Under the pieces are notes generated by a model. The model was not told the DNA's origin. It did not search any database and saw only the letters and a list, made by a program, of their open reading frames with translations. A program made the translations under genes and the position numbers. DNA of 64,000 nt, taken from assembly GCA_902586855.1 (NCBI GenBank), contig CACIIZ010000001.1:54326-118325 (forward strand), read 5' to 3'. This DNA is from an uncultured Alphaproteobacteria bacterium (lineage in GTDB: Bacteria; Pseudomonadota; Alphaproteobacteria; Rhodobacterales; Rhodobacteraceae). This document shows positions 5,755 through 38,791 of the stretch, piece after piece. Position 1 is the first letter of the stretch, and each line of letters starts with the position of its first letter.

Positions 5755-5773
5755 TATTTTAGCTCCCAAAATA

Positions 5774-7450: not shown

Positions 7451-7513
7451 TATTTCCTCCATTAACAAAACTATGGGATTATTTTTTCTTTTGAAACCCT
7501 GTTGAAAAAATTG

Positions 7514-11286: not shown

Positions 11287-11298
11287 GATTTCATAATC

Positions 11299-12555
11299 TC
11301 AATGCAAATTAGGTTGAGCACCGACCCCTTTTTCATCAATTAAATTGCCCGTCCTAAATCTATCAAGCTTGTAACCTCTTGCTACAGGATGGGGCGTATC
11401 GGTGGCTAGTAGGTGGGCATAACAATAGCCACTAGCCGGTGTAGCTTTAAATCCTCCATAACACCATCCTCCATTAAAATATAATCCATCAATATGCGTT
11501 CTATCTATAAAGGGAGATCCGTCCATGGACATATCCATCACCCCTCCCCACATTCTCAATAATCTTGCGCGACCAATCATGGGTATAATAGCCATTCCGC
11601 CCTCGCACACATCTTCTACAACTGGGAGATTGCCTCTTTGGGCATAGCTATTATAACCGTCTAGATCTCCCCCAAAGACAAGACCACCCTTATCGGATTG
11701 ACTGACATAAAAATGACCTGCACCAAAAGTTATTACATTATCTAAAATAGGTTTCAAACCTTCAGATACAAAGGCTTGTAACACATGGCTTTCTATAGGA
11801 AGCCGGATACCGGCTGTGCTCATGACTTGGCTTGATGATCCCGCCACGCAAGAAGCCACCTTTTTGGCTTGTATGTCTCCCTTTGACGTCCGAACACCAG
11901 AACAGACTCCGTTTTTTATGATGAAGCCTTCCACGTTACAGTTTTGAATTATATCAACGCCTTTCATGTCTGCTCCGCGGGCATACCCCCAGGCAACGGC
12001 GTCATGTCTAACGGTTCCCCCACGTTTTTGCATCAAGGCACCTTTTACTGGAAACCTAGCATTTTCAAAATCTAAATATGGACATAGTTTTCTTAAAGCA
12101 TTTTCATCTAGTAAATCAGCATCAGCCCCAGACAGGAGCATAGCGTTTCCACGCCGTACAAATGCGTCCCTTTGAGGATCACTATGAAAAATATTAATGA
12201 CGCCTCTTTGCGATACCATGGAGTTATAATTGGTGTCTTGTTCTAAGCCTTCCCATAACTTTAATGAAAACTCATAAAAGGGCTCATTTTCAGGCAACAA
12301 ATAATTGGAACGAATAATCGTTGTATTTCTTCCAATGTTACCAGACCCCAACCAGCCTTTTTCGAGTACGGCAACATTATTAATATTATAAACATTGCTA
12401 AGATAGTAAGCAGTTGATAAACCGTGGCCACCGCCACCAATAATGATTACGTCATAATTCTTCTTTGGCTGAGGCTCACGCCAAGCTTTTCGCCAACCGC
12501 GGTTACCAAATATACCTTCGAGAAAGATTTTTGCTGCAGAATATTTCATGTTCAA
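11299..12555 (-). CDS. soxB: sarcosine oxidase beta subunit family (SoxB / MgdA-type) FAD flavoprotein
   Basis: 418 aa with dinucleotide fold VIIIGGGGHGLSTAYYLS. First gene of the B-D-A-G order. Confidence 0.9.
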   Translation of the reverse strand: MNMKYSAAKIFLEGIFGNRGWRKAWREPQPKKNYDVIIIGGGGHGLSTAYYLSNVYNINNVAVLEKGWLGSGNIGRNTTIIRSNYLLPENEPFYEFSLKLWEGLEQDTNYNSMVSQRGVINIFHSDPQRDAFVRRGNAMLLSGADADLLDENALRKLCPYLDFENARFPVKGALMQKRGGTVRHDAVAWGYARGADMKGVDIIQNCNVEGFIIKNGVCSGVRTSKGDIQAKKVASCVAGSSSQVMSTAGIRLPIESHVLQAFVSEGLKPILDNVITFGAGHFYVSQSDKGGLVFGGDLDGYNSYAQRGNLPVVEDVCEGGMAIIPMIGRARLLRMWGGVMDMSMDGSPFIDRTHIDGLYFNGGWCYGGFKATPASGYCYAHLLATDTPHPVARGYKLDRFRTGNLIDEKGVGAQPNLH

Positions 12556-12655: not shown

Positions 12656-13618
12656 GTGTATAGAGTGGGGGTGCTTTTACTAGATGGATTCGCTTTGATG
12701 TCTTACGCGTCATTAGTAGAGCCTTTCAGGGCTGCAAATTTCCTGGATAACGAAAAACTCTATCAAATAGTGAATTTAACAGAAAAAAAACAAGGAGCGG
12801 TTTCTTCCTCGGGACTGAGAGTCGAGTCAGACTATACGCTCGGAGATTTCCCTGCACTAGATTTATTGATGGTTGTCGCGGGAGGTGATCCTTTGAAGTA
12901 TGAAAACAAATCATTATTCAACTGGATCAATAAATTTGCTAGATTTGGAGTAATGATAGGAGGTGTTTCAGGGGGGCCAATCATCTTAGTTAAATCGGGG
13001 TTGATGAAAGACTACCGTATGACTGTTCACTGGGAGCATGCTCCCACTTTATTGGAAATCTATGACGATCTGCTGCTGGAGAAAAGCCTCTTTGTTTTTG
13101 ATCGCGATCGCATAACATGTGCCGGAGGAACTGCACCTATTGACATGGCTTTAGCACTGATTTCTAGGAGGCAAGGGGCCTTTTTTGCCCAGCTCGTAAG
13201 TGATTGGTTCTTACATACTGAAATTAGACCTTCAGGAGGGCCTCAGAGATCCAATCTTATTAATAGAGTTGGTACTACAAATAATAAGGCACTAATAGCA
13301 ATAGAGCTAATGGAGACTCATATAGCCGACCCCTTGAGTCTGGAAAACCTTGGAAATTTAACAGGAGTATCTCGAAGACAGCTGAATCGAGTTTTTCAAA
13401 AGGCTTTTAATAAAGGGACAATGGAGTACTATCGTGAGATAAGATTGGAAAAGGCAAAAAACTTGTTAAGAAATTCAAGAATGTCTGTAGCTGAAATTTC
13501 AGAAGTGACAGGTTTTTGTACGGCATCACATTTCTCCAGGTCCTTCTTAAATTTGTTTGCGGTACCACCATCTGACTACAGAAAGGGGAGCCAATTTGCA
13601 TTTGTGGGTGACTCGTGA
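12656..13618 (+). CDS. GlxA-family transcriptional regulator (DJ-1/PfpI-like domain + AraC HTH; GbdR/CdhR type)
   Basis: 320 aa with an N-terminal amidotransferase-like domain (RVGVLLLDGFALMSYASLVEPFR) and C-terminal AraC HTH (LTGVSRRQLNRVFQKAF ... GFCTASHFSRSF). Confidence 0.85.
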   Translation: MYRVGVLLLDGFALMSYASLVEPFRAANFLDNEKLYQIVNLTEKKQGAVSSSGLRVESDYTLGDFPALDLLMVVAGGDPLKYENKSLFNWINKFARFGVMIGGVSGGPIILVKSGLMKDYRMTVHWEHAPTLLEIYDDLLLEKSLFVFDRDRITCAGGTAPIDMALALISRRQGAFFAQLVSDWFLHTEIRPSGGPQRSNLINRVGTTNNKALIAIELMETHIADPLSLENLGNLTGVSRRQLNRVFQKAFNKGTMEYYREIRLEKAKNLLRNSRMSVAEISEVTGFCTASHFSRSFLNLFAVPPSDYRKGSQFAFVGDS

Positions 13619-13665
13619 TTTACAGAAGGTACAGAAGTAACACGATATAAATAAAAAGGGTCTTG

Positions 13666-14385
13666 ATGCATATATTAATCCTCCAACATGCTAGAGTGGA
13701 GACGGCAGGTTCTTTGGGACACTTCCTCAAGGAGGATGGACATACTAGCCAGATAGTTCACCTAGATGAAGGAGAACAAATCCCAAAAGATAAAAATATG
13801 GATGGTCTTTGGGTTTTAGGTGGGCCAATGGATGTTTGGGATGAGGGGCAGTTGCCTTGGTTAAAAGATGAAAAGTTGTTTATTCGTTCACAAGTATACG
13901 ACAAGGGGGTGCCTTTTCTGGGCATTTGTTTAGGCCATCAATTATTGGCTGAAAGTCTTGGAGGTCGTGTAGCTAAATCACTTAATCCTGAAGTTGGGTT
14001 TTTGGATGTATCTCTTACCGAAAGCGGGCAAACTGGGGTATTTTTTGATGGACTCCCAGATATTTTTAAGACCCTCCAGTGGCATGGCGCTGAGGTTGTT
14101 GAATTGCCTCCGGGTGCTAAAAGCTTAGCCTGGTCGGAAAATTGTCATATTCAGGCTATGCAATGGAATACCAGAGCCTTTTCTGTACAGTTTCATGTGG
14201 AGATAGAAGAAGATACTGTAAAAAAATGGGCTAATATTCCCGAATATCGGGCGTCATTAGATAAAGCAATGGGAGAAAATGGTTTCGAAAAGATGCAAGA
14301 GGCTTGTTTTGCGAACATTCCCAGCATGAAGCAAAAAGCGGAGAGGCTATATATTAACTGGATGCAGGCGACAGCCCAAACTTAA
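13666..14385 (+). CDS. class-I (type 1) glutamine amidotransferase-like protein
   Basis: About 239 aa with catalytic-triad context GICLGHQLL and QFHVE. AAGGG SD upstream of the ATG at 13666. Confidence 0.8.
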   Translation: MHILILQHARVETAGSLGHFLKEDGHTSQIVHLDEGEQIPKDKNMDGLWVLGGPMDVWDEGQLPWLKDEKLFIRSQVYDKGVPFLGICLGHQLLAESLGGRVAKSLNPEVGFLDVSLTESGQTGVFFDGLPDIFKTLQWHGAEVVELPPGAKSLAWSENCHIQAMQWNTRAFSVQFHVEIEEDTVKKWANIPEYRASLDKAMGENGFEKMQEACFANIPSMKQKAERLYINWMQATAQT

Positions 14386-15074
14386 GTTCCAGCGGCTCGG
14401 GTCAGGGAAAGTCTGGCGATTTCCAAATGTTCTTTCATAAATGCAGCTGCTTTTTCAGGTTCCCGCGCTCTGATTGCGTTCAAGATTTGCCGGTGTTGTA
14501 TATTGTATGTCCTTATTATTGTATCATTTAATGTTTGATGTCTTGCTCTCATCCACTCATCTTGGCCTCGGACTGAATTGATTTGATTTATGATCCAAAT
14601 TAAAAGATTGTTTCCAGTGCAGTCTGATAAAATCTGATGAAATGCAGAATCAGCTGATGAGAATTGTGTGGGATCCTTGACACTTCTTTCCATGGTTTCA
14701 ACTAAGGTTTCAAGTTGCTCAAATTGATCTTTCTTTCCGTGCAAAACTGCTAATCTACAAATATGTGGCTCTAATGCAAATCGAGCATCAATTAATTCTA
14801 AAGGGTTGGCATTCTTAACTTCAGATACTGGGAGAGCAGAAGTTTCATAGATAACGAAGGCTCCACTCCCAGCCCTTATTTCTAGAAACTTTTCTGATTC
14901 TAATTTTGCCAGGGCTGATCTAATAGTACCTCTTGACACCCTAAAACGCTCAGCTAACTCTCTTTCAGCTGGAAGTTTTTCTGGTGCTAGAAGTTGCCCG
15001 TTTAGAATTTCTCTTCTTATGCCTGCTGCTATACTCTCCGAGCCATGCCTGATAGTTTCACTTGAGGCGTCCAT
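14382..15074 (-). CDS. GntR-family (FadR/FCD subfamily) transcriptional regulator
   Basis: 230 aa with an N-terminal winged HTH (LPAERELAERFRVSRGTIRSALAKLE) and an all-helical FCD-like C-terminus. AAGGAG SD. Its stop overlaps the convergent amidotransferase stop by 4 nt. Confidence 0.85.
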   Translation of the reverse strand: MDASSETIRHGSESIAAGIRREILNGQLLAPEKLPAERELAERFRVSRGTIRSALAKLESEKFLEIRAGSGAFVIYETSALPVSEVKNANPLELIDARFALEPHICRLAVLHGKKDQFEQLETLVETMERSVKDPTQFSSADSAFHQILSDCTGNNLLIWIINQINSVRGQDEWMRARHQTLNDTIIRTYNIQHRQILNAIRAREPEKAAAFMKEHLEIARLSLTRAAGT

Positions 15075-15100
15075 AAAAAAATCTCCTTTTGTATACCGAT

Positions 15101-15117
15101 ATTATACCAAAAAAGAG
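15101..15117 (-). promoter_or_regulatory. CTCTTTTTTGGTATAAT box (extended -10-like), candidate gntR promoter
   Basis: On the minus strand it reads ...TTTTTTGGTATAATATCGGTATACAAAAGGAGATTTTTTTATG. The -10-like hexamer lies about 27 nt upstream of the start at 15074 with the SD in between. 15 nt (15102-15116) are identical to 33366-33380. Confidence 0.35.
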
Positions 15118-15209: not shown

Positions 15210-16553
15210 ATGGCTTTTCCTAATCATGCAGAGTTCGTAATAATTGGGGCAGGGATTCATGGGTTGTCAACGGCTTGGCAATTAGCAAAGAGGTTTCAAG
15301 AAGCCGGAAAGGAAATAGAAGGGCGTATAATAGTTCTTGATAAAACAGGAATAGCGTCCGGGGCCTCAGGTATAGCCTGTGGAGTTGTTCGTAATAATTA
15401 TTTCCAGCCTGCTATGCGAGAGCTAATGGCCCATTCGGTTGATCTATGGGAGAGTGACCCGGAAGGCCTTCATTATCATCCTGTAGGTTACATGCAAATT
15501 TCTTCTGAAACTATGAGATCAGATGTTTCCCAGATATATCAGCAACAGGCTGCAATAGGTTATGAGAGTCATTTTGTAGAAGGTGAAAATGCTTCGACTA
15601 AGTATATGAGAGGTTTCTTTGATGACTGGCAAGCAAAGGGAATCACTTCAGTTCTTCACGAGAAAAGAGGTGGCTACTCGAATCAAACAAAAACAATGTA
15701 TGGGCTTGCTTCCAAGGTTGAAGCTCTGGGCGTCAGGATTATTGCTGGAGCGGAAGTAAAGGGTTTTATTAACGAGAATGGGTCGGGTTCTGTCAAGGCT
15801 GTTGAAACCAATTTGGGTAGAGTAGAGTGCGATCATGTCGTGATCGGTGCAGGACCATGGGTAAGAGACTTTTGGGATATGTTGGATTTACCCAAGAAGA
15901 TAGAAGTTAAAGATTTAGTGGGAGACCTACACTCTAATGTGGATATGTGGAGATATTGGCAATTGGAGGAAGGAGTCCTAAATGTAGATCCTGGTATGTT
16001 TAAGACTAATGATGGGGAAGTCCCCCCAGTTTTACATGTGGATACTGATGCTCCGCTTATTTCAGATGTGGATGGTTCGATCATTACAGAAGAGATGTGG
16101 GGAATTTATTATAAACCAGACTGGCATTTTGGTGGGATACAAGGAGGAGCTTCACCTTATAAAGTCGAAACACCTGTAGATAAGGTGAAGGTAGATCCTT
16201 ATGGACCGTCGAGCCCTGAATTTGTTTCGAGCAAAGAGTTTGCCCATATGTGGGTTTCTGCTTTAGCGCATTGCCATAAAAGGTTTGAAGGTTCAATGCC
16301 TAAATACCATCGGGATCCATCTGGAGGAATAGGTTGTTTTACCCCGGATAGTTTCCCTGTTTTTGATCATTTTAGAGAAAATGTAGCTGTAATTGCTGAT
16401 TCTAACCATGGTTGGAAAATGATAGGTGTTGGGCACTTGATTGCTGATGAGGTTTTAGGCAATGAACAGGATTTACTAAAGCCCTTTAGGTTTAACAGGT
16501 TTAGCAAAGGCGATTTGCATCCAGTCTCTAATAGTCCGTACCCTTGGAGTTAA
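15210..16553 (+). CDS. FAD-dependent oxidoreductase, SoxB/MgdA-like (DAO family), not accompanied by alpha/gamma/delta partners
   Basis: 447 aa. N-terminus FVIIGAGIHGLSTAWQLAKRF parallels the soxB product VIIIGGGGHGLSTAYYLS. First gene of the 15.2-23.2 kb operon. Confidence 0.8.
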   Translation: MAFPNHAEFVIIGAGIHGLSTAWQLAKRFQEAGKEIEGRIIVLDKTGIASGASGIACGVVRNNYFQPAMRELMAHSVDLWESDPEGLHYHPVGYMQISSETMRSDVSQIYQQQAAIGYESHFVEGENASTKYMRGFFDDWQAKGITSVLHEKRGGYSNQTKTMYGLASKVEALGVRIIAGAEVKGFINENGSGSVKAVETNLGRVECDHVVIGAGPWVRDFWDMLDLPKKIEVKDLVGDLHSNVDMWRYWQLEEGVLNVDPGMFKTNDGEVPPVLHVDTDAPLISDVDGSIITEEMWGIYYKPDWHFGGIQGGASPYKVETPVDKVKVDPYGPSSPEFVSSKEFAHMWVSALAHCHKRFEGSMPKYHRDPSGGIGCFTPDSFPVFDHFRENVAVIADSNHGWKMIGVGHLIADEVLGNEQDLLKPFRFNRFSKGDLHPVSNSPYPWS

Positions 16554-16595
16554 GTTAAGAGAATAATTACTAAGATTTTTGGAAAGGAGAGAACA

Positions 16596-18077
16596 GTGTC
16601 AAAGAAGGATATAGAGGAGTTTGTTGAAGCTCCAGGCCGTGAAGAAAAAATTAAGGAAGTTAGAAAAAAAATTGACGAACTGGGGATTACATACTTGTAT
16701 CTCCAATTTGTTTCGGTCACTGGAAAGATTATGGGCAAAGGTATTCCTGCTGATCATTGGGAAAGCATTTCAAGGAAAGGATTTCAGTTAGTTTATGGGG
16801 CAACGGTCAATCTGTTCACCAATAGGTCAGGAGATTATTTGGGATATGGCCCTGAGGCTGCAGAATTGGTGGGTATACCGGAACCAGAAACATTTATGCA
16901 ATTACCTTGGGATAAAAGGGTAGCCAGATTTTACTGCACACTTTTTCGTAATAGAGAAGAGCGCGAAAACCCTGGTGCCTATCTAACGGCTGATTGTAGG
17001 GGTAATTTGCGGAGGCTTCATAGGGAGTTTTCAAAGAAGCATAATGGCTTGCAGTTAAGAATGGGCACAGAGCCGGAAATGATGTGGCTGAAGTTTGATG
17101 AGGATGGAAAACCGAAAGATGGCTATTCGAAGCCTTATTGTTACCATATTGACCAATTTGAGAGTTTGCGGCCTGTTTATATGAAGGTGATTGAGTACGC
17201 GAGAGCTATGGGCTTAGATATGATTCAAGGAGATCACGAAGATGCCCCTGGTCAATTAGAGCTGAATTTTACTTTTGACGATGTCTTGAGGAATGCGGAC
17301 AGATTAACAACATATAGACAAATTTGTGCCCAAGTCGCTCGTGAGTTTGGAATATTCGCCTGCTTCATGAGTAAACCTTTTATGGGGGTTTCTGCTTCTG
17401 GTTGCCATCATAATATGTCGCTATGGAGAGGTGGAGAAGATGTCTTCATTCCTATGGGTAATGATCCAAAAAACTTACCAGGCATGCGGGATAACTATAT
17501 GCATGTGAAAGGCGGCGAAAATACTTTCATGCCTGACGGAGATGATCCCCAAATGCCACAGAAGGCAGGATTAGAAGCAATTGGGGGTATCGTCCACCAT
17601 CTCAGAGCATTAACGGCAATTGGTTGCTCTACTGTAAATTCTTATCGCCGACTGTGGGATACTGGGTTTTGGGCACCTGTATTTGCGGATTGGGGGTTTC
17701 AAAACCGCACAACTGGGCTCAGGGTTTCGGCTCCAGGGCGTTTCGAATACAGGTCAGTAGACTCTATGGTAAATCCATATCTTATGGGATCCACAATTAT
17801 AGCTGCTGCTGATGACGGCATTGAGAATAAGCTAGATCCTGGACCACCCGAAGAAAGAAATATATATCAAGCCATGGAGGCTGGTAAGCAAGTTAAGAAG
17901 TTACCTATGTCATTAGGGGAATCCCTTGAAGCTTTAGCTAATGATCCTGTTGTTCAAAAAGGCATGCCAGGTGAAATGTATGGCCTTTTTCATGAATACA
18001 AGGCTGATGAGTGGGCGCGCTTTATGTCAACGGTCACGGATTGGGACAACGATACTTATATGGAATGTTTGCCATAA
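16596..18077 (+). CDS. glutamine synthetase family protein, long form (candidate gamma-glutamyl-alkylamide synthetase, GmaS-like)
   Basis: 493 aa with a GTG start and GGAGAG SD. GS catalytic-domain motifs are present (GTEPEMMW, HEDAPGQLELNF, SGCHHNMSLW, NSYRRL). It sits directly upstream of mgsABC-type genes and has extra segments compared with the 435-aa paralogue at 35221..36528. Confidence 0.8.
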   Translation: MSKKDIEEFVEAPGREEKIKEVRKKIDELGITYLYLQFVSVTGKIMGKGIPADHWESISRKGFQLVYGATVNLFTNRSGDYLGYGPEAAELVGIPEPETFMQLPWDKRVARFYCTLFRNREERENPGAYLTADCRGNLRRLHREFSKKHNGLQLRMGTEPEMMWLKFDEDGKPKDGYSKPYCYHIDQFESLRPVYMKVIEYARAMGLDMIQGDHEDAPGQLELNFTFDDVLRNADRLTTYRQICAQVAREFGIFACFMSKPFMGVSASGCHHNMSLWRGGEDVFIPMGNDPKNLPGMRDNYMHVKGGENTFMPDGDDPQMPQKAGLEAIGGIVHHLRALTAIGCSTVNSYRRLWDTGFWAPVFADWGFQNRTTGLRVSAPGRFEYRSVDSMVNPYLMGSTIIAAADDGIENKLDPGPPEERNIYQAMEAGKQVKKLPMSLGESLEALANDPVVQKGMPGEMYGLFHEYKADEWARFMSTVTDWDNDTYMECLP

Positions 18078-18135
18078 TTCGGGACTTGCGGCGTTCAAAG
18101 TTAACAATGATATAATATGATAAGGAGCACTATGA

Positions 18136-19068
18136 ATGTGTGGAATAGCAGGGTTAATCCATAGAGGAAAGAAATCGACGGTTGGTTCTGAAATGACCCA
18201 AATGCTGCAAGCATTGAAGCATCGGGGACCAGATTCAACGGGTTATGCCGTTTACGGAGAGGCTGGCGGTGGATTAGTAATGAGGTTAAAGATAGCTGAA
18301 GCGGATGATATGGATAGGGGGAGCGGAATATATGCTGAACTCGATCGTAGGATAGACGCCGTTGATGTTATCATGGAAGAACATGGAGTTAAGGTCTCAA
18401 AAAAGGAAAAAGTTACTGATTATGCATATCGTTATGAGTACAACTTCACTGGAGATTTAGGTAAACTCGCTGAGCATGTCGAAGAAGTTGAAGGAGCGGA
18501 GATTCTTTCAATTGGTAAAGGCTTAGAGTTAATAAAAGATCTTGGAGATGCTGCTGTAGTTTCTGAGGCTTATGGATTAAAAGCTTTTCAAGGAACTCAT
18601 GGAATTGGTCACACAAGAATGGCTACAGAGTCAGATGTGGACATACGTTCGGCGCATCCTTATTGGGCTTTCCCATACAATGATGTTTCGGTTGTTCACA
18701 ATGGGCAGATAACAAATTACTGGATAATGAGAAGACAAATGGAGAAAAAAGGCCATAGGTTTACCTCTAACTGTGACAGCGAGCTATTAGCAGTTTATAC
18801 TGCCCATAATCTATCACTTGGAATTAGTTTGGAAGACAGTCTTAGGCAATCAATTGAGGAAATTGATGGTGTATTCACATATTTAGTGGCAACCAAAGAT
18901 CAGCTAGGAATGGCTAAAGATACTATGGCAGCAAAACCCTTGGTTCTTTATGAAAGTGATAAATTGATAGCAATGGCTTCAGAGGAGGTAGCTATCAGAG
19001 CCATTCTCCCAGAAGAGATCGATACTTCTGACCCATATGACGAGGAGGTAAGAGTATGGCAAGCGTAA
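18136..19068 (+). CDS. mgsA: class-II glutamine amidotransferase subunit (N-methylglutamate synthase subunit A / GlxB-type)
   Basis: 310 aa starting MCGIAG, the N-terminal nucleophile Cys of Ntn amidotransferases. Gene order matches mgsA-mgsB-mgsC. Confidence 0.8.
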   Translation: MCGIAGLIHRGKKSTVGSEMTQMLQALKHRGPDSTGYAVYGEAGGGLVMRLKIAEADDMDRGSGIYAELDRRIDAVDVIMEEHGVKVSKKEKVTDYAYRYEYNFTGDLGKLAEHVEEVEGAEILSIGKGLELIKDLGDAAVVSEAYGLKAFQGTHGIGHTRMATESDVDIRSAHPYWAFPYNDVSVVHNGQITNYWIMRRQMEKKGHRFTSNCDSELLAVYTAHNLSLGISLEDSLRQSIEEIDGVFTYLVATKDQLGMAKDTMAAKPLVLYESDKLIAMASEEVAIRAILPEEIDTSDPYDEEVRVWQA

Positions 19069-19925
19069 CAGAAAATGAATTAAAATCTATGACCCAAGAA
19101 GAGCGTGTCAAAGCTCTTGGAATGACTAGTGAACAATTGACGGGCAGGTCGATGTTTATGGAATTTGATCCTGGTGAAACCGAGAGATTTGAATATCCTT
19201 GGGCACCCAAGGTCGATTTCAATAAGAGGACTGAGCTAGACTCAGAGAATATGACATCAACCGAAGTAAATAACGAGATTCGAAAACTAATGAATGAAGG
19301 ATATGGCACAATTGTCCTAAAGAATCCTAGAGGCAAGCACTCTTTAGCTGTTGGGATCTTGAGTAAACTTAATCTCATTATAGAGGGATCCACTGGTTAT
19401 TTTGGCGTCGGATTGATAGATGGTCCAAATGTGAGAATTAATGGTAGAGTAGGATGGTCCTGTGGCGAAAATATGATGTCAGGAACCGTCTTAATTGAGA
19501 AAAACGCTGGCTCCACTTTTGGAGCAGCTATTAGGGGAGGAGATCTTGTCTGTAAAGGTTCGGTAGGATCTAGGACAGGAATTGATATGAAAGGTGGCAC
19601 GATCATTGTCGGGGGTGACACAGGTGCTTTATCTGGTTTCATGATGCAACGCGGTAGGATGATAGTTTGCGGAAATGCTGGAAAAAACCTTGGTGATTCA
19701 ATGTATGATGGAACAATCTATGTTGGTGGATCAATTAAGTCGTGTGGTGTTGATGCCGTAGAAGCTGAGTTAACCCAGGTTGATAAGGATTGGCTTAAAA
19801 GAAAGTTAAACCTGTATGGGCTCTTACCAACTAAAGGAGTTGATCATTTCACAAAAGTAGTCGCTGGCAAAATGCTATGGAACTATGACAATTTAGAACC
19901 AACGGAAAAGAAACTTATTCTTTAA
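19056..19925 (+). CDS. mgsB: GXGXG-motif glutamate-synthase C-terminal-domain protein (N-methylglutamate synthase subunit B / GlxC-type)
   Basis: 289 aa with repeated G-rich beta-helix repeats (GSTGYFGVG, GWSCGENMMSG, GSVGSRTGIDMKGG, GGDTGALSGFMM). 13-nt overlap with mgsA. Confidence 0.8.
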   Translation: MASVTENELKSMTQEERVKALGMTSEQLTGRSMFMEFDPGETERFEYPWAPKVDFNKRTELDSENMTSTEVNNEIRKLMNEGYGTIVLKNPRGKHSLAVGILSKLNLIIEGSTGYFGVGLIDGPNVRINGRVGWSCGENMMSGTVLIEKNAGSTFGAAIRGGDLVCKGSVGSRTGIDMKGGTIIVGGDTGALSGFMMQRGRMIVCGNAGKNLGDSMYDGTIYVGGSIKSCGVDAVEAELTQVDKDWLKRKLNLYGLLPTKGVDHFTKVVAGKMLWNYDNLEPTEKKLIL

Positions 19926-19955
19926 GATTTTAGTAGAATTCAGAAGGAAAATATA

Positions 19956-21320
19956 ATGGCTGATGGAAATCCAATAAATAAAAAACCTCTCAATAGAGAC
20001 CCTTACAGATTAGGAAATTCCTTTGTTTTTCCACCGCGTGTTATGGATGATATTCATATCAAAGCCGAGCTGGGAAGATATAGGATGCGAGGGTTTTCCT
20101 TATTTAAGAAAATCCCTCATTGGGATGATTTAACTTTTCTACCAGGAACTCTCACACGCTTTGTTATTGAGGGTTATAGAGAAAAATGTGATACGAAAAC
20201 CATAATAGGTCCTCGTGCAAAAAGGCCATTAGAATTAGATATTCCAGTATATATCACTGGCATGAGCTTCGGTGCTCTCAGTTATGAAGCAAAAACGGCA
20301 TTAGCCAGGGGTGCTACTATGGCAGGAACAGCAACTTGTTCAGGTGAAGGTGGTATGATTCCGGATGAACGACGGTATTCTTCAAAATGGTTTTATCAAT
20401 GTATTCAGTCTAGGTATGGGTTTAATCCTCATCATCTAGTTTTAGCAGATGGTTGTGAGTTTTTCATAGGGCAAGGTTGTAAAGTTGGCTTGGGAGGACA
20501 TTTGATGGGTCAAAAAGTAACTGATCAAGTGGCTGAGATGCGTTCGTTACCAGCTGGCATAGATCAGAGATCTCCGGCAAGGCATCCTGATTGGTTAGGC
20601 CCAGATGATTTGGCTTTAAAGATTCAAGAGATTAGGGAAGCAACAGACTGGCAGATTCCCATCCAATTAAAACTGGGTGCCGCTAGAGTTTATGATGATG
20701 TTCGTATGGCTGTAAAATGCGATCCAGACTCGATCTATATAGATGGTATGGAAGGTGGTACTGGTGCGGGTCCCCATCTAGCTACTGAAGACACGGGTGT
20801 CCCAGGTATGGCTGGCATTCGCCAGGCTAGAAAGGCAATTGATGACTTGGGTAAAAGAGGAGAAATAACACTTATTTATGCTGGAGGTATAAGAAACGGC
20901 GCTGATGTTGCTAAAGCCATTGCCTTGGGAGCAGATGCCATAGCAATTGGACATTCGGCTATGATGGCTTTGAATTGTAACAAAGATATTCCTGAAGCCA
21001 ATTACCCTGAGGAAATGGGAGTAGATCCTGGAGAGTGTTATCATTGCCATACCGGTCGATGTCCTGTGGGCGTTGCCACGCAAGATCCCCTCCTTCGTTC
21101 TAGATTAGACCCTGACGAGGCAGCAGAACGGGTATACAATTTCCTGCATACACTCACAATCGAAGCACAGTTGTTTGCCAGGGCTTGCGGCAAAACAAAT
21201 CTTCACTCATTGGAGCCAGAAGATCTTGCTGCTTTAACTATGGAGGCTTCTGCGATGGCAGGAGTTCCTTTGGCGGGCACTAATCATACTGTTGGAATTG
21301 ATGACTACCATCATCTTTAG
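19956..21320 (+). CDS. mgsC: FMN-binding glutamate-synthase-family protein (N-methylglutamate synthase subunit C / GlxD-type)
   Basis: 454 aa, GltS FMN-domain-like (ITGMSFGALS, IDGMEGGTGAGP, YAGGIRNGADVAKAIALGADAIAIG). Confidence 0.85.
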   Translation: MADGNPINKKPLNRDPYRLGNSFVFPPRVMDDIHIKAELGRYRMRGFSLFKKIPHWDDLTFLPGTLTRFVIEGYREKCDTKTIIGPRAKRPLELDIPVYITGMSFGALSYEAKTALARGATMAGTATCSGEGGMIPDERRYSSKWFYQCIQSRYGFNPHHLVLADGCEFFIGQGCKVGLGGHLMGQKVTDQVAEMRSLPAGIDQRSPARHPDWLGPDDLALKIQEIREATDWQIPIQLKLGAARVYDDVRMAVKCDPDSIYIDGMEGGTGAGPHLATEDTGVPGMAGIRQARKAIDDLGKRGEITLIYAGGIRNGADVAKAIALGADAIAIGHSAMMALNCNKDIPEANYPEEMGVDPGECYHCHTGRCPVGVATQDPLLRSRLDPDEAAERVYNFLHTLTIEAQLFARACGKTNLHSLEPEDLAALTMEASAMAGVPLAGTNHTVGIDDYHHL

Positions 21321-21331
21321 GAGAATATATT

Positions 21332-21745
21332 ATGGCTGGAACACAATACAGAGGATCTGAACTTAAAAACGTGGATCAATTTCTTGATGATGCTGATGGA
21401 TTAGACAGTGAAAGAGAAAAAGAGATAGGTCAACACATCGGGTATAGATATGACGTAAACCTTGTGCCTGATTATAAAAGGTTAACTCCATTTTTAAAAA
21501 AATATATGGAAATTATGGGGTGGGATGATTTAAATTGGTTGGAAGATATTCACATGGGCTATGAAGAAGCTAAACCTGCCGTTTTTGATAGAAATATAAA
21601 TGGTTGGGTTCGAGTACCTGACAGTATTGATTTGCCAGATAATCAACAAGATAGAGATATGATTGCCCGCGAATTATTACTCAAATTTCAAATGTCGGAT
21701 AGGCATCCATTGGTTGCTTTAAGAAAGGCCTACATGAAATTTTAA
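21332..21745 (+). CDS. hypothetical protein (137 aa, acidic, no motif I recognise)
   Basis: ORF starts 11 nt after mgsC and ends 2 nt before the C-N hydrolase, so packing and coding-like composition support it. No TM segment and no recognisable domain. Confidence 0.55.
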   Translation: MAGTQYRGSELKNVDQFLDDADGLDSEREKEIGQHIGYRYDVNLVPDYKRLTPFLKKYMEIMGWDDLNWLEDIHMGYEEAKPAVFDRNINGWVRVPDSIDLPDNQQDRDMIARELLLKFQMSDRHPLVALRKAYMKF

Positions 21746-21747
21746 TT

Positions 21748-22602
21748 ATGGCTCGATTACTAACAATATCTTGTCTGCAAACAAGTCCCAGACCCACCTT
21801 TGCATCTGCACGGGAAGAAGCCATAGCTCTGGCAGAGATGGCGATGGGGAAAGGACCTTCCTTAATCTGTCTACCAGAATATTGTGGCGGTCTGAGAAGC
21901 GATGAGGGAAGGTTTATTCCTCCACATGCAAAGGAGGATGAACATCCAGTACTATTAGCTTTGAAGGATTTTGCAAAAAAAAATAAAGTTTGGATTAGTG
22001 TGGGTTCTGTTGCAATAACTGGTGAAAATGGGAGGTATTTTAACAGGAGCCTACTTTTGGATAATAACGGTGATATCAAATGTAGGTATGACAAGATACA
22101 TCTTTTTGATATCAATCTTGCTGATAATCCTCATGCGTTTAAAGAAAGTGCTACTGTTCAATTTGGAAACCAGATTTCTTTGGCTGAGACTCCTTTTGGA
22201 AAGATTGGTTTTTCCGTTTGCTATGATTTGCGGTTTGCACATATATACAGGCAAATGGCCCAAAATGGCGCGGAAATCTTGTTGGTGCCTTCTGCTTTTA
22301 CAAAAAAGACGGGGGAAGCCCATTGGCACATTTTGAATCGGGCAAGGGCAATAGAAAACGGTGCTTTTGTGATTGCTCCTTGTGCTAGTGGCCTGATTGA
22401 AGGAGGAGGAGATTCATATGGGCACTCCTTAGTTGTGGATCCTTGGGGTGAGATTTTAGCCGATGGTGGTGTTGGTTCAGGCGTCATAACCTTACAAATA
22501 GATTTGCAGAAAGTAGGAAAAACACGAATGCAGATCCCTAGTTTACAGCATGACCGAGATTATGAACTAAAGATAATCGATGTATCTGGAGAAAATACAT
22601 GA
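21748..22602 (+). CDS. carbon-nitrogen hydrolase family protein (nitrilase superfamily; omega-amidase/Nit-like)
   Basis: 284 aa. The Glu-Lys-Cys triad contexts are visible (ICLPEY; RYDKIHLF; GFSVCYDLRF), followed by HWHILNRARAIENG. Confidence 0.85.
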   Translation: MARLLTISCLQTSPRPTFASAREEAIALAEMAMGKGPSLICLPEYCGGLRSDEGRFIPPHAKEDEHPVLLALKDFAKKNKVWISVGSVAITGENGRYFNRSLLLDNNGDIKCRYDKIHLFDINLADNPHAFKESATVQFGNQISLAETPFGKIGFSVCYDLRFAHIYRQMAQNGAEILLVPSAFTKKTGEAHWHILNRARAIENGAFVIAPCASGLIEGGGDSYGHSLVVDPWGEILADGGVGSGVITLQIDLQKVGKTRMQIPSLQHDRDYELKIIDVSGENT

Positions 22603-23177
22603 TTGAAAACATTATTGATTCAACTGAAATACCAAATAAGATTCCTTCACCTCAGGAAAAATTCATGAAATTTCAGTGTAGAGCTAGGCAAATGATAATG
22701 CGTGATAATCTTGGACGACCAGATGACTCAATCACCCCGACGATTTATCTGAAGGATAATACGAATCCCATTACTAAGATAATAACTTTGATACATAAGT
22801 TACCAGAATATTCAGCGCTGTCAGAGTTAATGCATATTGCTAGGAAAACTAATGATCCATCTCAAAGGAGAGACCAAGCTGTAAAGTTACTTTCTGCTTC
22901 ATATTACCAAAAACATCGTGAATTTACTGATGTTTTGACGGCAACATTTACTCCCAACTCAAATTTAGCGGAAACGCTAATTTCTGAGGGGAGTTGTCGG
23001 CTTGTTTTTGATGCCTATTCTCATAAATTTGAGAGTACTTTTACTGTCAACAAACTTGAGAGATCAGAATTTCTTTTTCGTTCAACAATAATGCATAATC
23101 AGTTATTTAATCCAAAACTTCACCCAGAAACAATCATTTTGAGTTTCAGTCCCGTGTGGGAGGAAAACGAAGCATAA
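22599..23177 (+). CDS. hypothetical protein (192 aa, no motif I recognise)
   Basis: ATGA start/stop overlap with the C-N hydrolase. Last gene of the operon, 64 nt upstream of tmm. Confidence 0.55.
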   Translation: MIENIIDSTEIPNKIPSPQEKFMKFQCRARQMIMRDNLGRPDDSITPTIYLKDNTNPITKIITLIHKLPEYSALSELMHIARKTNDPSQRRDQAVKLLSASYYQKHREFTDVLTATFTPNSNLAETLISEGSCRLVFDAYSHKFESTFTVNKLERSEFLFRSTIMHNQLFNPKLHPETIILSFSPVWEENEA

Positions 23178-23241
23178 ATAATGGGTCAAATAATTTGACA
23201 AAGTACTGATTGTCGACCAGTATTTTGGAGGGGGAAATGTC

Positions 23242-24582
23242 ATGGGTATTAGAGTAGGAATAATCGGTGCTGGTCCGTCAGGATTATCGCAACTCAGGGC
23301 TTTTGAAAGGGCGGAAAATAAAGGCGATTCAATTCCTGAAATTGTGTGTTTTGAAAAGCAATCAGATTGGGGAGGGCTTTGGAACTATACTTGGCGAACG
23401 GGTGTAGATGAAGCTGGAGATCCATGTCATGGTTCAATGTATAGATACCTTTGGTCAAATGGGCCCAAGGAGGGCTTAGAATTTGCTGACTATACATTTA
23501 AAGAGCACTTTGGAAAAGATATCGCGTCTTACCCTCCTAGGGCTGTACTATTCGATTACATCAAAGGTAGGTTAGAAAAAACTGCTTTTAGAGATAAAAT
23601 ACGGTTCAACACTATCGTCCGAGATGTTAGGTATCATGAGGATAAAAGCGAATTTGAAGTCATATCTAGAGATAATAAGAGTGATACAGAGTCTGCTGAT
23701 TATTTTGATCACTTAATTGTCGCAACTGGTCATTTTTCTACCCCTTATGTTCCCTATTATGAGGGATTTGATAGTTTTAATGGTAGGATTTTACATGCTC
23801 ACGATTTTAGAGATGCTCGAGAATTTACCGGGAAAAATATCTTAATTCTTGGCACAAGTTATTCAGCAGAAGATATAGGATCTCAGTGCTGGAAATATGG
23901 ATGCGAGTCAATCACTGTGGCTCATAGAACTGCTCCCATGGGCTTTGATTGGCCTGACAATTGGCAAGAGGTCCCGGCTTTGGTAAAAACTGAGGGGTCT
24001 AAAGCACATTTCAAGGATGGATCTTCCAAGGAAGTTGACGCAATTATTCTTTGCACTGGGTATCAACATCATTTTCCATTTTTACCGGATGATCTTCGCT
24101 TGAAAACAGCAAATCGGCTGGCAACGGCTAATTTATATAAAGGAGTCGTTTGGGCCAATAATCCAAGATTATTTTACCTCGGAATGCAGGATCAGTGGTT
24201 TACCTTCAATATGTTTGACGCACAAGCCTGGTATGCACGTGATGTAATCATGGGGAAGATTGATTTACCTGAGGTTTCTGTAATGAAAAAGGATCCAGAG
24301 ATCCGAGAAGCAAAAGAGGATGCTTTAGAAGATGATTATGCCTGTGTTAGGTATCAGGGTGACTATGTGAGGGAGTTAATAGCTGAAACTGACTATCCTA
24401 GTTTTGATATCGATGCAGCCAATGAAGCATTCTTTTTATGGAAAAAGCATAAGAAGAAAAATATTATGACTTTCAGGGATAAAGGAGGTTTTGTTTCTCC
24501 CATGGATCAATCAATTTCTCCAGCTTATAAGAAAGCCTGGAAAGAGGAACTTGATGATAGCCTTGAAGCATACATGGAGTGA
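23242..24582 (+). CDS. tmm: trimethylamine monooxygenase (bacterial flavin-containing monooxygenase)
   Basis: 446 aa with the FAD site GAGPSG, FMO motif [11 protein letters not shown] (FxGxxxHxxxF) and NADPH site [20 protein letters not shown] 7 nt upstream. Context with a tdm-like gene and a betaine-type ABC system. Confidence 0.9.
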
Positions 24583-24670
24583 ATATAAAAACAGGTTGGA
24601 GTAAACATTAAATAGTTTTGTCATGTTAACGAGTACAGTTAGTAAAATTGAAACGAAAGGGAGAAAAAAA

Positions 24671-25630
24671 ATGAGAGAAATTGTATACAAATTGAGGGCC
24701 GCGCTAGCAATGGTTTTTCTAGCAGGAGCCACGATTTTTTCTGGTCCTGCAATTGCTGATAGCAGCGGTGTGATAAAAATTCCTACACATAATTGGTCAA
24801 GTCAGTTAGTTGGAGCAGAAGTTGTTGGAGAATTATTCAAGAAAGTAGGAGAAAAAGTTGAATACGTACCTATGGATAGCCAGACGGTTTATCAGGCTAT
24901 GGCAGATGGTGACATAGATATAGTGCATGAAGTTTGGGAAGGAGCTTTTGGTGCGTCCTTTGATAAATCTTTAGCAACTGGAAATGTAATAGATCTACTA
25001 ACCCATGATGCTGTAACTCGCGAAGATTGGTGGTATCCAGTATATATTGAGGAAGTTTGTCCTGGTTTGCCTGATTGGGAAGCCTTAGCCAAGTGCTCTG
25101 ACATGTTTGCGAGAGCAGATTCAGGCGGTAAAGGTGTCTTCATTGGAGGTCCAGTAGATTGGTTAAAGCATGATGCAGAAAAAGTTGAAGCTTTAGGCAT
25201 GAATTTTGTCGTTCGAAATGCTGGATCAGCTGGAGCAATCTGGGCAGAACTAGATGCAGCTGTTGCTCAGAAAAAGCCAGTGGTAATTTTTAATTGGTCC
25301 CCAAACTTCATTGGAGCTAAGTATCCGGGTAAGTTTGTAGAGTTTCCTACACATGATCCAAAATGCACAACTGATGCTTCATGGGGTGTAAACCCAGATG
25401 CGCTTTATGATTGTGGGAACCCTGCCAGTGGTTATTTGAAAATTGGGGTAAATAAAGATTTTGAAAAAAATCATCCAAAGGCTTTCAATATTGCGAAACA
25501 AATGAATTTTTCTGGCCCAGATATAGATAAGATGGCTAACTATGTTGATACTGATGGTATGGAAATTCCTGAGGCAGCCCAACAATGGTTAAAAGACCAT
25601 AAGTCTAAATGGGAAAAATGGGTTAAATAA
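24671..25630 (+). CDS. tmoX: glycine betaine/TMAO-type ABC transporter substrate-binding protein
   Basis: OpuAC/ProX-like SBP. The ATG at 24671 has an AAGGGAG SD and gives a signal peptide MREIVYKLRAALAMVFLAGATIFSGPAIA/DS; the track start at 24623 is unlikely. The tmoX name rests on tmm/tdm context only. Confidence 0.75.
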   Translation: MREIVYKLRAALAMVFLAGATIFSGPAIADSSGVIKIPTHNWSSQLVGAEVVGELFKKVGEKVEYVPMDSQTVYQAMADGDIDIVHEVWEGAFGASFDKSLATGNVIDLLTHDAVTREDWWYPVYIEEVCPGLPDWEALAKCSDMFARADSGGKGVFIGGPVDWLKHDAEKVEALGMNFVVRNAGSAGAIWAELDAAVAQKKPVVIFNWSPNFIGAKYPGKFVEFPTHDPKCTTDASWGVNPDALYDCGNPASGYLKIGVNKDFEKNHPKAFNIAKQMNFSGPDIDKMANYVDTDGMEIPEAAQQWLKDHKSKWEKWVK

Positions 25631-25718: not shown

Positions 25719-26756
25719 ATGCCCAAAAAATCTGTAACTATTTCTTGTAAGAACGTTTGGAAACTTTATGGTTCTGATCCGGCAAGATTTTTGGCTAACA
25801 GAAATTATAATCCCTCTGAAAACGACCTTAAGCAATCACAATATATTGCTGCAGTATTCGATGCCTCCATTGATGTTTTCAAAGGGGAAATACTTGTTAT
25901 AATGGGACTCAGTGGGTCAGGAAAATCAAGTCTGGTCCGTTGCATGACAAGACTTATTGAACCGACTAGTGGTGAGATTCATTTTGAGGGATCAGATTTA
26001 TTAAAAGCCACTGAAAAAGAGTTGATCGAAATCCGTCGCCACAAGATGGGTATGGTATTTCAAAATTTTGCCCTGATGCCACACAGAAATGTCTTGGAAA
26101 ACATAGCATTTCCGTTGGAGGTTCAAGGAGTCAGTAGAGAAAAAAGAGAAGAAAGAGCTATTGAAATCATTGATTTAGTTGGTCTAAAGGGTAGAGAAAA
26201 ATACTATCCAAGAGAGCTTTCAGGTGGTCAGCAGCAACGTGTTGGATTAGCGAGATCCCTTGCAGTTGAACCAAACATATGGTTTCTAGATGAGCCATTT
26301 TCAGCTCTTGATCCCTTAATAAGAAAAGAGATGCAGAATGAATTTCTTAGGCTACAAAATCTCCTGAATAAGACCATAGTATTCATTACTCATGATTTTG
26401 ATGAAGCGATTAGACTAGCAGATCGAATTGCAATAATGTACGAGGGACGGATTGTTCAGGTTGGGAATGCGGAAGAGCTTATAACGAACCCTGCCAATGA
26501 ATATGTTGCGGAGTTCACTAGGGACATACCTAGGGCCAAACTTTTATCAGTTGGTTCCATCATGCAACCTGCTAAAAAATCAACCAAAAACAAAATTGTT
26601 GTGAATAAGACGGATAAGATTTCTTCCGTAGCTCCAAGTATAATTTCTTCTAATGCAGTCGCAACGGTAGTTGATGAAAGTGGCGATGTATGTGGTGAGT
26701 TAACCAAAGATCAAATTGTTGACATTTTATTTGCTGATGAGAAGAATAATGACTGA
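25719..26756 (+). CDS. tmoV: betaine/TMAO-type ABC transporter ATP-binding protein
   Basis: 345 aa with Walker A GLSGSGKSS, signature LSGGQQQRV and Walker B IWFLDEPFSALD. OpuAA/ProV-like with a C-terminal regulatory extension. Confidence 0.85.
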   Translation: MPKKSVTISCKNVWKLYGSDPARFLANRNYNPSENDLKQSQYIAAVFDASIDVFKGEILVIMGLSGSGKSSLVRCMTRLIEPTSGEIHFEGSDLLKATEKELIEIRRHKMGMVFQNFALMPHRNVLENIAFPLEVQGVSREKREERAIEIIDLVGLKGREKYYPRELSGGQQQRVGLARSLAVEPNIWFLDEPFSALDPLIRKEMQNEFLRLQNLLNKTIVFITHDFDEAIRLADRIAIMYEGRIVQVGNAEELITNPANEYVAEFTRDIPRAKLLSVGSIMQPAKKSTKNKIVVNKTDKISSVAPSIISSNAVATVVDESGDVCGELTKDQIVDILFADEKNND

Positions 26757-38784: not shown

Positions 38785-38791
38785 TTTCTTT

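Follow-up and report, generated by a model that had tools for sequence, protein, structure and literature searches.

How do bacteria that carry tmm and tdm, and neither dmm genes nor canonical mgsABC, handle the nitrogen of dimethylamine (DMA) and monomethylamine (MMA)? The question is raised by a block of eight genes at positions 15210–23177 of a stretch of 64,000 nucleotides (contig CACIIZ010000001.1, from an uncultured alphaproteobacterium of the Rhodobacteraceae). The whole stretch is called the window here. Methylated amines are a major labile pool of nitrogen in the ocean and precursors of marine aerosol. Since 2017 the field's view has been that tmm, tdm and gmaS occur without dmmDABC in many abundant marine bacteria, which would make DMA a metabolic dead end in them (PMC5520151). 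We find that the block is a conserved variant module of methylated-amine metabolism. Our leading interpretation, which we hold tentatively, is that it represents a further gamma-glutamyl system for methylated amines, one not studied before, which would handle the nitrogen of both DMA and MMA and replace dmmDABC and mgsABC in such islands. A search of the literature on the block, on gamma-glutamyl-dimethylamide, on paralogous gmaS or mgs genes and on alternative DMA routes returned nothing relevant.

Layout, conservation and neighbours of the block

The block consists of eight open reading frames (ORFs) on the plus strand. Domains were called with Pfam and NCBIfam, and family scores were judged against the curated cut-offs. 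In order, the ORFs encode a flavoprotein of the DAO family, a ligase of 493 residues that resembles glutamine synthetase (GS; the ligase is called GS493 below), a trio of subunits that resemble glutamate synthase (GOGAT), an orphan protein of 137 residues (u137), a C-N hydrolase and a protein of 192 residues (u192; Table 1). The gaps between them are 42, 58, −13, 30, 11, 2 and −4 nt, and another 64 nt separate the last ORF from tmm. An earlier description made from the DNA letters alone (the sequence-only reading) had listed these eight ORFs with their coordinates, gaps of −13 to +58 nt and a distance of 64 nt to tmm, and all of this matched on recomputation. Its 137-residue unknown, C-N hydrolase and 192-residue unknown also agree with the domain searches (none, CN_hydrolase and none, respectively).

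No terminator-like site was found in any intergenic gap of the block, and promoter-like matches within it are no commoner than in shuffled sequence. Nothing therefore speaks against a single long transcription unit. Two antisense ORFs (18995–19393 and 21681–22115) were taken as chance ORFs within conserved genes. The functional unit exceeds the eight genes, as a divergent GntR/FCD regulator gene, a gene for a class-I glutamine amidotransferase of the peptidase C26 type and the downstream genes tmm-tmoXWV-cupin-tdm accompany the block.

The GS493 family is widespread. A scan of species-representative genomes gave at least 584 stretches that match it, and metagenomic homologues number in the thousands. 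Its members are 81–95% identical, and the hosts are Rhodobacterales, Hyphomicrobiales, SAR116 and one gammaproteobacterial metagenome-assembled genome (MAG). Database names for the block proteins are limited to 'glutamine synthetase (family protein)', 'glutamate synthase' and 'hypothetical protein'. Synteny was counted at 61 loci with enough flanking sequence, and 54 of these carry the trio with its iron–sulfur (Fe-S) motif; we refer to them as variant B. GS493, the trio, u137 and the GntR gene are found at all 54 variant-B loci. The sequence-only reading had drawn attention to three additions beside the trio, and these are kept in relatives: u137 everywhere, u192 at 50 loci and the C-N hydrolase at 38. 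The latter is still linked where it lies beyond the GntR gene (L010, L075, L078). The other partners are tmoX (31/54), tmm and the C26 amidotransferase (28/54 each) and the DAO flavoprotein (26/54). A TmaR-like AraC/DJ-1 regulator gene lies 5′ of the block at 14 of the 54 loci, and mgd (soxB) at 13. Canonical mgsC is present at three, and no Dmm protein is encoded at any. Independent metagenome contigs (L090–L092) are colinear with the window, in the order tmaR, C26, GntR (minus strand), DAO, GS493, trio, u137, C-N hydrolase, u192, tmm, tmoXWV, cupin, tdm and ammonium transporter.

The relation to dmm was examined from both sides. The sequence-only reading had seen no dmm gene in the tmm-tdm module. 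By tblastn with the Dmm proteins of Paracoccus aminophilus plasmid pAMI6 as queries, this absence extends to the whole 64-kb window, in which no homologues of DmmA, DmmB or DmmC were found; the DmmD query matches only the GcvT part of tdm. This reading had also proposed a check of co-occurrence or anticorrelation with dmmDABC, and in the loci and plasmid records covered here block and dmm are reciprocally absent. With the same queries, DmmA, DmmB or DmmC was found within 10 kb of none of 84 block loci, and none of 41 dmm-anchored metagenome loci (each at least 12 kb) contains block genes. The 41 dmm loci are flanked by canonical mgsC (22), gmaS (25), tmm (23), tdm (21), tmaR (32) and mgd (13). 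On plasmid records no GS493 homologue of at least 60% identity was found, and 148 of the records have DmmC and 139 have tmm, in nearly the same genera.

A single family can contain both types of island (Ruegeria pomeroyi versus Ruegeria sp. HKCCD8929; Roseovarius sp. 217 versus Roseovarius sp. SCSIO 43702), so that the pattern is not purely a deep split between lineages. In a comparison with the dmm-less strains of PMC5520151, the names of block-cluster members showed no overlap with the strains in its table. In most block islands both dmm and canonical mgs are missing, and the block has the look of a substitute for the two.

Proteins of the block and of variant A

GS493 scores 309.8 bits with TIGR03105 (GmaS/type III GS), below the cut-off of 469.6. 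It is equally far from the solved GmaS structures and from archaeal GS (about 195 bits each), is 30% identical to GmaS and has three insertions of 10, 7 and 26 residues. Of the earlier description as a long GS-like ligase, the GS-like assignment stands (Gln-synt_C); a long GmaS it is not, as 310 bits against 470 mark a separate family. Active-site residues were read from the alignment with the GmaS of the window, in the numbering of RhGmaS, with residue roles taken from PMC7948447. GS493 keeps the Mg ligands Glu122, Glu124, Glu179 and Glu325, as well as Asp177, Glu186, Asn188, His235, Arg312, Arg317 and Lys30′, and its ATP residues are intact. It has a Trp instead of the Glu-flap glutamate, as in GmaS, and no equivalent of Asp50′. 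The amine pocket of GS493 is flanked by smaller residues (Y174I, N176G, F185L, M187L). The retained catalytic residues of GmaS, together with the missing Asp50′ and Glu-flap glutamate, argue for an active organic-amine ligase with a GmaS-type mechanism, in a separate GS-like family, and not for an ammonia-specific GS. RhGmaS itself turns over DMA, with a kcat of 2.6 s−1 and a Km of 16 mM (PMC7948447, Table 1).

The nearest relatives of GS493 outside its family (52–54% identity) are encoded on one Paracoccus plasmid and one Ruegeria plasmid, in clusters for alkylamines that resemble Ipu and Puu. In these sister clusters (L085 and L086) the ligase gene is accompanied by another GS-like gene and by genes for a type-1 amidotransferase and a cytochrome P450; the P450 is annotated as such in L086 and was detected with tblastn in L085. 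Aldehyde dehydrogenases are further members of L085, and a 2Fe-2S ferredoxin is a further member of L086. In Methyloceanibacter (L002/L003, 3532–7578), the DNA just 5′ of the GntR gene of the block encodes two more GS-like paralogues (451 and 453 residues, 37–39% identity to gmaS) together with an alpha/beta hydrolase. Four GS-like ligases at one locus hint at a family of amine-specific gamma-glutamyl ligases.

A second arrangement of the ligase, variant A, was found at eight loci. Here a ligase 81–83% identical to GS493 occurs without the trio, u137 and u192, and a cytochrome P450 gene lies within about 50 nt 3′ of it. A GMC oxidoreductase and an alpha/beta hydrolase are nearby in all eight. 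Most have the C26 hydrolase and tmm, tdm or tmoX in their flanks, and some an ammonium transporter. The P450 is 51–54% identical to that of the sister-family clusters. An oxidative gene set beside the ligase suggests that the product of the ligase bears an oxidisable N-alkyl group, which argues against ammonia as the substrate and, taken with the neighbours, for a methylated amine.

The trio comprises an Ntn amidotransferase, a GXGXG subunit and an FMN glutamate-synthase-domain subunit in the same gene order as mgsABC (18136–21320). The sequence-only reading had labelled these genes mgsABC. The label does not hold: they encode a paralogue with an Fe-S motif, 31, 36 and 53% identical to the genetically assigned MgsA, MgsB and MgsC of P. 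aminophilus pAMI6, and the canonical MgsABC orthologues in the 41 dmm loci are 67–88% identical to the pAMI6 set. The FMN subunit, 84–98% identical across loci, carries the motif NC...(17-residue insertion)...CY[HN]CH[TS]GRCPVGVATQ. In the window it reads NC...CYHCHTGRCPVGVATQ, and three of the cysteines fall on the 3Fe-4S ligands of GltB in alignments to 7MFM and 1EA0. The motif is invariant in 67 of 67 FMN subunits of the block (66 loci and the window). Seven canonical MgsC proteins, that of pAMI6 included, have WHEG(Q/K/R)(D/C)PAG instead and lack the cysteine set. The score of the trio with the GltB family NF008730 is 137 bits, against a cut-off of 1047, and no GltD-like gene was found in or beside the block. 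Given the invariant cysteines, the FMN subunit most likely contains an Fe-S cluster and has a partner for electron exchange. The reaction of N-methylglutamate synthase is redox-neutral and requires neither an Fe-S cluster nor external electrons. The cysteines of the block, absent from MgsC, thus fit a reaction that draws electrons from outside.

Both sets stand side by side in some genomes. Canonical mgs genes and the block adjoin in Methyloceanibacter (L002, L045, L050, L058), and in Pikeienuella (L051) the genes that come straight after canonical mgsABC-gmaS are C26, GntR, DAO and GS493.

The DAO protein matches PF01266 only over residues 9–226. It had been described as SoxB/MgdA-like, which the scores contradict: its best NCBIfam match is soxB at 71 bits (cut-off 529), over the N-terminal 210 residues. 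PDB matches to the N-terminal half of SoxB are weak, and the block encodes no alpha, gamma or delta partner subunits. By these criteria it is a member of a new DAO subfamily and not an orthologue of SoxB or MgdA. Flavin amine oxidases of the DAO family act on amines and not on amides, which favours N-methylated glutamates over gamma-glutamyl amides as its substrate. In the colinear contig L090 a second DAO-family gene (9576–10892, 438 residues) lies directly 3′ of tdm and could encode a further demethylating flavoprotein of the island. In three loci without the DAO gene, a P450 gene (44% identity to the variant-A P450) is located a few kilobases 3′ of the block (L018 17018–18178, L029 16732–17904, L054 6732–7898); it may replace the flavoprotein there.

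Searches of Pfam, NCBIfam and the PDB gave no match for u137. It has at least 7996 close homologues. An exhaustive profile search of 1.84 billion representatives returned only 304 clusters at 50% identity, with no informative domain fusion, and homologue searches gave no relatives outside the block context. Its AlphaFold model was poor (pLDDT 53) and was not used. The protein is probably a structural subunit of a complex. For u192, a profile search against PDB sequences gave no match. Its AlphaFold model is confident (pLDDT 89.7), and Foldseek returned only weak matches to FMN/heme split-barrel proteins (E ≥ 8e-3, TM about 0.4), N-hydroxylamine dehydratase among them. The protein is possibly a cofactor-binding helper. 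The best NCBIfam match of the C-N hydrolase is NF043013 (deaminated glutathione amidase), for which its score is 202 bits and the cut-off 500. Its motifs LPEY, DKIHLF and VCYD can be placed as a Glu-Lys-Cys triad, and an enzyme of this Nit1/omega-amidase-like kind may clear oxo-amide side products.

The GntR/FCD regulator resembles TmoR of R. pomeroyi, a GntR repressor of tmm whose main effector is DMA (PMC13390433). If it is a TmoR orthologue, the block would be induced by DMA. The divergent intergenic region between GntR and DAO contains a direct repeat, TATACC-N6-TATACC (15096–15113), as a possible operator. Another possible operator, the inverted repeat GTACTG-N10-CAGTA (23196–23222), is located 20–45 nt 5′ of tmm and suggests that tmm has a regulatory site of its own within the long operon. 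The C26 amidotransferase was considered as a gene specific to the block; this was ruled out by a homologue 3′ of canonical gmaS in Ruegeria conchae.

A candidate route for DMA and its alternatives

The route that we propose starts with Tmm and Tdm, whose genes share the transcription unit of the block and which would convert trimethylamine (TMA) to DMA. At the expense of ATP, GS493 would then attach DMA, and perhaps also MMA, to the gamma-carboxyl group of glutamate, and the GmaS of the window would do likewise for MMA. The Ntn amidotransferase of the trio would split the gamma-glutamyl amide and channel the amine to 2-oxoglutarate. The FMN/Fe-S subunit would reduce the adduct with electrons delivered via the Fe-S cluster, to give an N-methylated glutamate and regenerated glutamate. 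The DAO flavoprotein and MgdABCD would strip the methyl groups as one-carbon (C1) units, which FolD and Fhs would oxidise. Stray amide or oxo-amide side products would be salvaged by the C-N hydrolase and the C26 amidotransferase. Probably u137 would serve as the structural subunit of the complex and possibly u192 as the cofactor-binding helper, and the DMA-responsive TmoR-like GntR repressor would govern the whole unit. The P450 of variant A would act directly on the methyl group of the amide. We infer every chemical step of this route; the direct data are gene content, synteny, conservation of catalytic residues, the Fe-S motif and the reciprocal absence of block and dmm.

The sequence-only reading had floated a gamma-glutamyl-dimethylamide branch. 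This is the most attractive reading and has gained circumstantial support. In its full form the block would be the missing DMA route of dmm-less marine bacteria. DMA would be converted to N5,N5-dimethylglutamine, then by an Fe-S GOGAT-like amidotransferase to N,N-dimethyl- or N-methylglutamate, which would be demethylated by flavoproteins, so that free MMA and free ammonia are bypassed; in the second form, a P450, a GMC oxidoreductase and a hydrolase would act on the gamma-glutamyl amide. We regard this detailed version as possible, and put it forward with a little more reserve than the general assignment of the block to DMA and MMA nitrogen.

Several points weigh against a role in DMA use. 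The functions of the block proteins are read from sequence and gene context. To our knowledge, neither the reductive amination with a secondary amine nor the cleavage of a tertiary amide by an amidotransferase has a precedent in this enzyme family. An electron donor for the Fe-S cluster is wanting, in that the block and its flanks hold no GltD-like gene. The GntR protein is likened to TmoR by family and position only. The mutual exclusion of block and dmm spans 10-kb neighbourhoods and plasmids, and lineage-specific island types could explain it. At 26 of the 54 loci neither the DAO gene nor a P450 gene is nearby, which would mean that the oxidase is not obligatory in cis. The loci of the Methyloceanibacter type, finally, combine the block with a complete canonical gmaS-mgs set and have no tmm or tdm within 10 kb.

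A credible rival, which we rank below the DMA-inclusive reading and consider rather unlikely, is that GS493 and the Fe-S trio form a second type of GmaS and N-methylglutamate synthase for MMA only, working from 2-oxoglutarate and a reductant rather than from glutamate. DMA would then go unused, as in the 'bottleneck' of Lidbury et al. 2017, and dmm-less bacteria with tmm and tdm are indeed on record (PMC5520151). The homology of the trio with mgsABC, in the same gene order, and the GmaS-type catalytic residues of GS493 agree with this. So does the gene content: the window has mgdABCD and gmaS and no canonical mgsABC, so that a maker of N-methylglutamate is needed, and canonical mgsC is near the block in just three of 54 loci. 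However, two MMA ligases would be redundant in an island that also holds canonical gmaS, and both full sets adjoin in Pikeienuella and Methyloceanibacter. An alternative N-methylglutamate synthase should also sometimes adjoin dmm, as canonical mgs does at 22 of 41 loci, and this was seen at none of the 41 dmm loci and none of the 84 block loci. The block is tied to tmm, tdm and a TmoR-like regulator and not to mgd, and variant A joins the same ligase to a P450 and oxidoreductases with no trio.

It is improbable, in our view, that the block handles some other nitrogen compound formed or encountered in the same niche. Such a compound could be a by-product of Tmm that is N-hydroxylated, for example N-methylhydroxylamine or hydroxylamine, or else a different small alkylamine. 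Ligases of the GS family do accept hydroxylamine and short alkylamines (RhGmaS has a Km of 211 µM for hydroxylamine, PMC7948447), the sister ligase family is found in other alkylamine clusters, the island encodes a MOSC-domain protein (34426–35202), and the fold matches of u192 include N-hydroxylamine dehydratase. These matches are weak, though, and the steady partners tmm, tmoXWV, tdm, mgd and tmaR yield DMA and MMA; the reciprocal absence of block and dmm would be left unexplained. A dedicated GS-GOGAT pair, in which a true GS and a split glutamate synthase assimilate the ammonium released from methylated amines, would account for the GltB cysteines of the FMN subunit, for a domain set equal to that of a split GltB and for the ammonium transporter close by. 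We rejected it as very unlikely, because the residues specific for ammonia (the Asp50′ equivalent and the Glu-flap glutamate) are missing from the ligase, which has GmaS-type substitutions in their place (PMC7948447), and because in variant A the ligase is paired with a P450, which like the GMC oxidoreductase and the hydrolase has no role on glutamine. The block is also without a GltD-like reductase, and the nearest relatives of the ligase are in alkylamine-catabolic clusters. Least probable of all is the proposal of the sequence-only reading that the DAO flavoprotein is a monomeric N-methylglutamate oxidase in place of MgdABCD, within a self-contained eight-gene pathway for MMA. Enzymes of the DAO family do oxidise N-methyl amino acids, and the DAO gene is the first of the operon. 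It was rejected since a canonical mgdABCD, whose beta subunit is 71% identical to MgdA of P. aminophilus, is located 2.7 kb 5′ of the block; mgd is also found 5′ of the block at 13 of 54 loci, and about half of the block loci have no DAO gene.

The surrounding island and known systems

The window surrounds the block with further genes for methylated amines (Table 1). On the left, the mgd cluster exceeds the cut-offs of TIGR01373 (soxB, 660 bits, cut-off 529) and TIGR01372 (soxA, 1233 bits, cut-off 1164), and its subunits are 71 and 52% identical to MgdA and MgdC of P. aminophilus. The delta subunit is expected in the gap 11039–11299, where no ORF was called. In R. pomeroyi, TmaR has the same place beside mgd (PMC13390433), and SPO1557 is fhs. 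On the right, the GmaS of the window matches RhGmaS 7CQL with 599 bits and is 62% identical to the GmaS of P. aminophilus. With the pAMI6 proteins as queries, no canonical mgsABC was found across the 64-kb window. The sequence-only reading had implied that the block replaces GmaS and MgdABCD, but canonical gmaS and the mgd cluster are both present in the same window.

Table 1. Features of the block and of the island around it in the window
Feature	Position	Strand	Basis and remarks
DAO-family FAD amine oxidoreductase, 447 aa	15210–16553	+	PF01266
GS493, GS-like gamma-glutamyl-amine ligase (predicted), 493 aa	16596–18077	+	Gln-synt_C
Ntn (class II) amidotransferase subunit, 310 aa	18136–19068	+	GATase_6/7 (PF13522/PF13537); begins MCGIAG (N-terminal Met-Cys)
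GXGXG subunit, 289 aa	19056–19925	+	PF01493; canonical MgsB has 227 aa
FMN glutamate-synthase-domain subunit, 454 aa	19956–21320	+	PF01645, 304 bits; four-cysteine Fe-S motif
u137, orphan protein, 137 aa	21332–21745	+	no Pfam/NCBIfam family; always 3′ of FMN subunit
Nitrilase-superfamily C-N hydrolase (Nit1/omega-amidase-like), 284 aa	21748–22602	+	PF00795, 180 bits
u192, 192 aa	22599–23177	+	no Pfam/NCBIfam family; between block and tmm
folD	4858–5802	−	NF010785, 475 bits, above cut-off; tetrahydrofolate-linked C1 oxidation
fhs	5774–7468	−	NF010030, 915 bits, above cut-off; with folD, left edge of island
mgdABCD (= soxBDAG) cluster, canonical four-subunit type	7514–12555	−	gamma 7514–8095, alpha 8064–11039, beta 11299–12555
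AraC/DJ-1 (GlxA-type) regulator, TmaR-like	12656–13618	+	Pfam HTH_18 and DJ-1_PfpI; divergent from mgd
Class-I glutamine amidotransferase/peptidase C26, putative gamma-glutamyl-amide hydrolase	13663–14385	+	Pfam GATase and Peptidase_C26
GntR/FCD regulator, TmoR-like by family and position	14382–15074	−	Pfam GntR and FCD; divergent from block
tmm, trimethylamine monooxygenase	23242–24582	+	NF058570, 777 bits (cut-off 675)
tmoXWV-type ABC transporter: binding protein, ATPase, permease	24623–25630, 25719–26756, 26716–28758	+	Pfam OpuAC, ABC_tran, BPD_transp_1
Cupin	28886–29260	+	Cupin_7
tdm, trimethylamine N-oxide (TMAO) demethylase	29257–31644	+	NF053776, 1200 bits (cut-off 1100)
Ammonium/methylammonium transporter	31883–33271	−	PF00909
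gmaS, canonical gamma-glutamylmethylamide synthetase	35221–36528	−	TIGR03105, 647 bits (cut-off 470); without mgsABC beside it

Some further features of the window were recorded. A small ChrR-type cupin between tmoV and tdm is kept in block-type and dmm-type islands (28886–29260 in the window, 43546–43899 in L089). In the window its gene overlaps the start of tdm by 4 nt, and its product may be an accessory of TMAO demethylase that has so far been overlooked. The region from the ammonium transporter to gmaS contains genes for an EamA transporter (33510–34361, plus strand) and a MOSC-domain protein (MOSC_N and MOSC, 258 aa; 34426–35202, plus strand). Enzymes of the MOSC/mARC type reduce N-hydroxylated compounds, and this protein could relate to N-hydroxylated by-products of Tmm on secondary amines. 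At 36640–39838, a protein of 714 residues fuses a pyridine-nucleotide-disulfide oxidoreductase with an AIR-synthase-related (SelD-like) domain and is adjoined on the opposite strand by a rhodanese-domain protein of 348 residues; the two may be a pair for selenium or sulfur trafficking. The minus strand at 41744–45592 encodes an unusual combination of a luciferase-like monooxygenase, AA_synth (PF06684) and a 701-residue fusion of a family III CoA-transferase and a flavin reductase.

The plus strand at 46929–55726 encodes an aldehyde dehydrogenase, an enoyl-CoA hydratase, a 3-hydroxyacyl-CoA dehydrogenase, a BKACE enzyme, an acyl-CoA dehydrogenase, an ADP-forming acyl-CoA synthetase and a family III CoA-transferase, and resembles the carnitine-type cluster that adjoins the methylamine island of the P. 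aminophilus plasmid pAMI6 (L087, 1–5703). Genes of inositol catabolism (an iolC/iolJ fusion and iolB, 555–3305) border the island on the left. The GC content is about 40% throughout the window, and the closest relatives of the island proteins are found in single-cell genomes and MAGs of uncultured marine alphaproteobacteria (AG-911-F16, SAR116, Paracoccaceae).

The block is a concrete and widespread candidate for DMA use, in one operon with tmm and tdm, in islands without dmm and mgsABC. If DMA is indeed processed, gaps in annotation would account for at least part of the proposed oceanic 'DMA bottleneck', and gene-based estimates of DMA turnover and of the nitrogen supply from methylamines would need to be revised. 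It would also mean new enzyme chemistry, in which a secondary amine enters an Fe-S GOGAT-like enzyme as a gamma-glutamyl amide. Even if the block is only a second type of N-methylglutamate synthase, marker surveys that use canonical gmaS and mgs overlook it. Cultured carriers, for example Roseovarius and Ruegeria strains, make the question directly testable; block carriers include Roseovarius sp. SCSIO 43702, Roseovarius atlanticus R12B, Ruegeria sp. HKCCD8929 and Pseudaestuariivita atlantica.

Among known systems, the N-methylglutamate pathway GmaS-MgsABC-MgdABCD (Methyloversatilis, Methylocella, R. pomeroyi and P. aminophilus) has the same gene order of a ligase followed by three glutamate-synthase domains, and is found in the same islands, with tmm, tdm, tmaR, mgdABCD, folD and fhs. 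Unlike this pathway, the block has u137, u192, the C-N hydrolase and the DAO flavoprotein, and some genomes hold both. DmmDABC, of the heme-dependent oxidative N-demethylase type, takes the same position in its islands, by tmm, tdm, tmaR and mgd. It has no kinship with the block in sequence or domains, so that a functional equivalence would follow from context only. With GltB and the archaeal-type split GOGAT the block shares the domain set, spread over three proteins, and the 3Fe-4S cysteines beside FMN. It differs from GltB in the 17-residue insertion and a fourth cysteine, in having no GltD-like or ferredoxin partner and in its coupling to an amine ligase. The Puu system for putrescine (Escherichia coli) and the Ipu system for isopropylamine (Pseudomonas sp. 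KIE171) share a logic with the block: a GS-like ligase tags the amine, an oxidase (DAO-family PuuB or a P450) acts on the tagged amine, and a class-I/C26 hydrolase follows. As far as presence goes, all of these gene types are found here (ligase 16596–18077, DAO 15210–16553, C26 13663–14385). No aldehyde dehydrogenase is encoded in the block, and the nearest Aldedh gene (46929–48410) belongs to an unrelated cluster. What sets the block apart from Puu and Ipu is the GOGAT-like Fe-S trio and the context of methylated amines.

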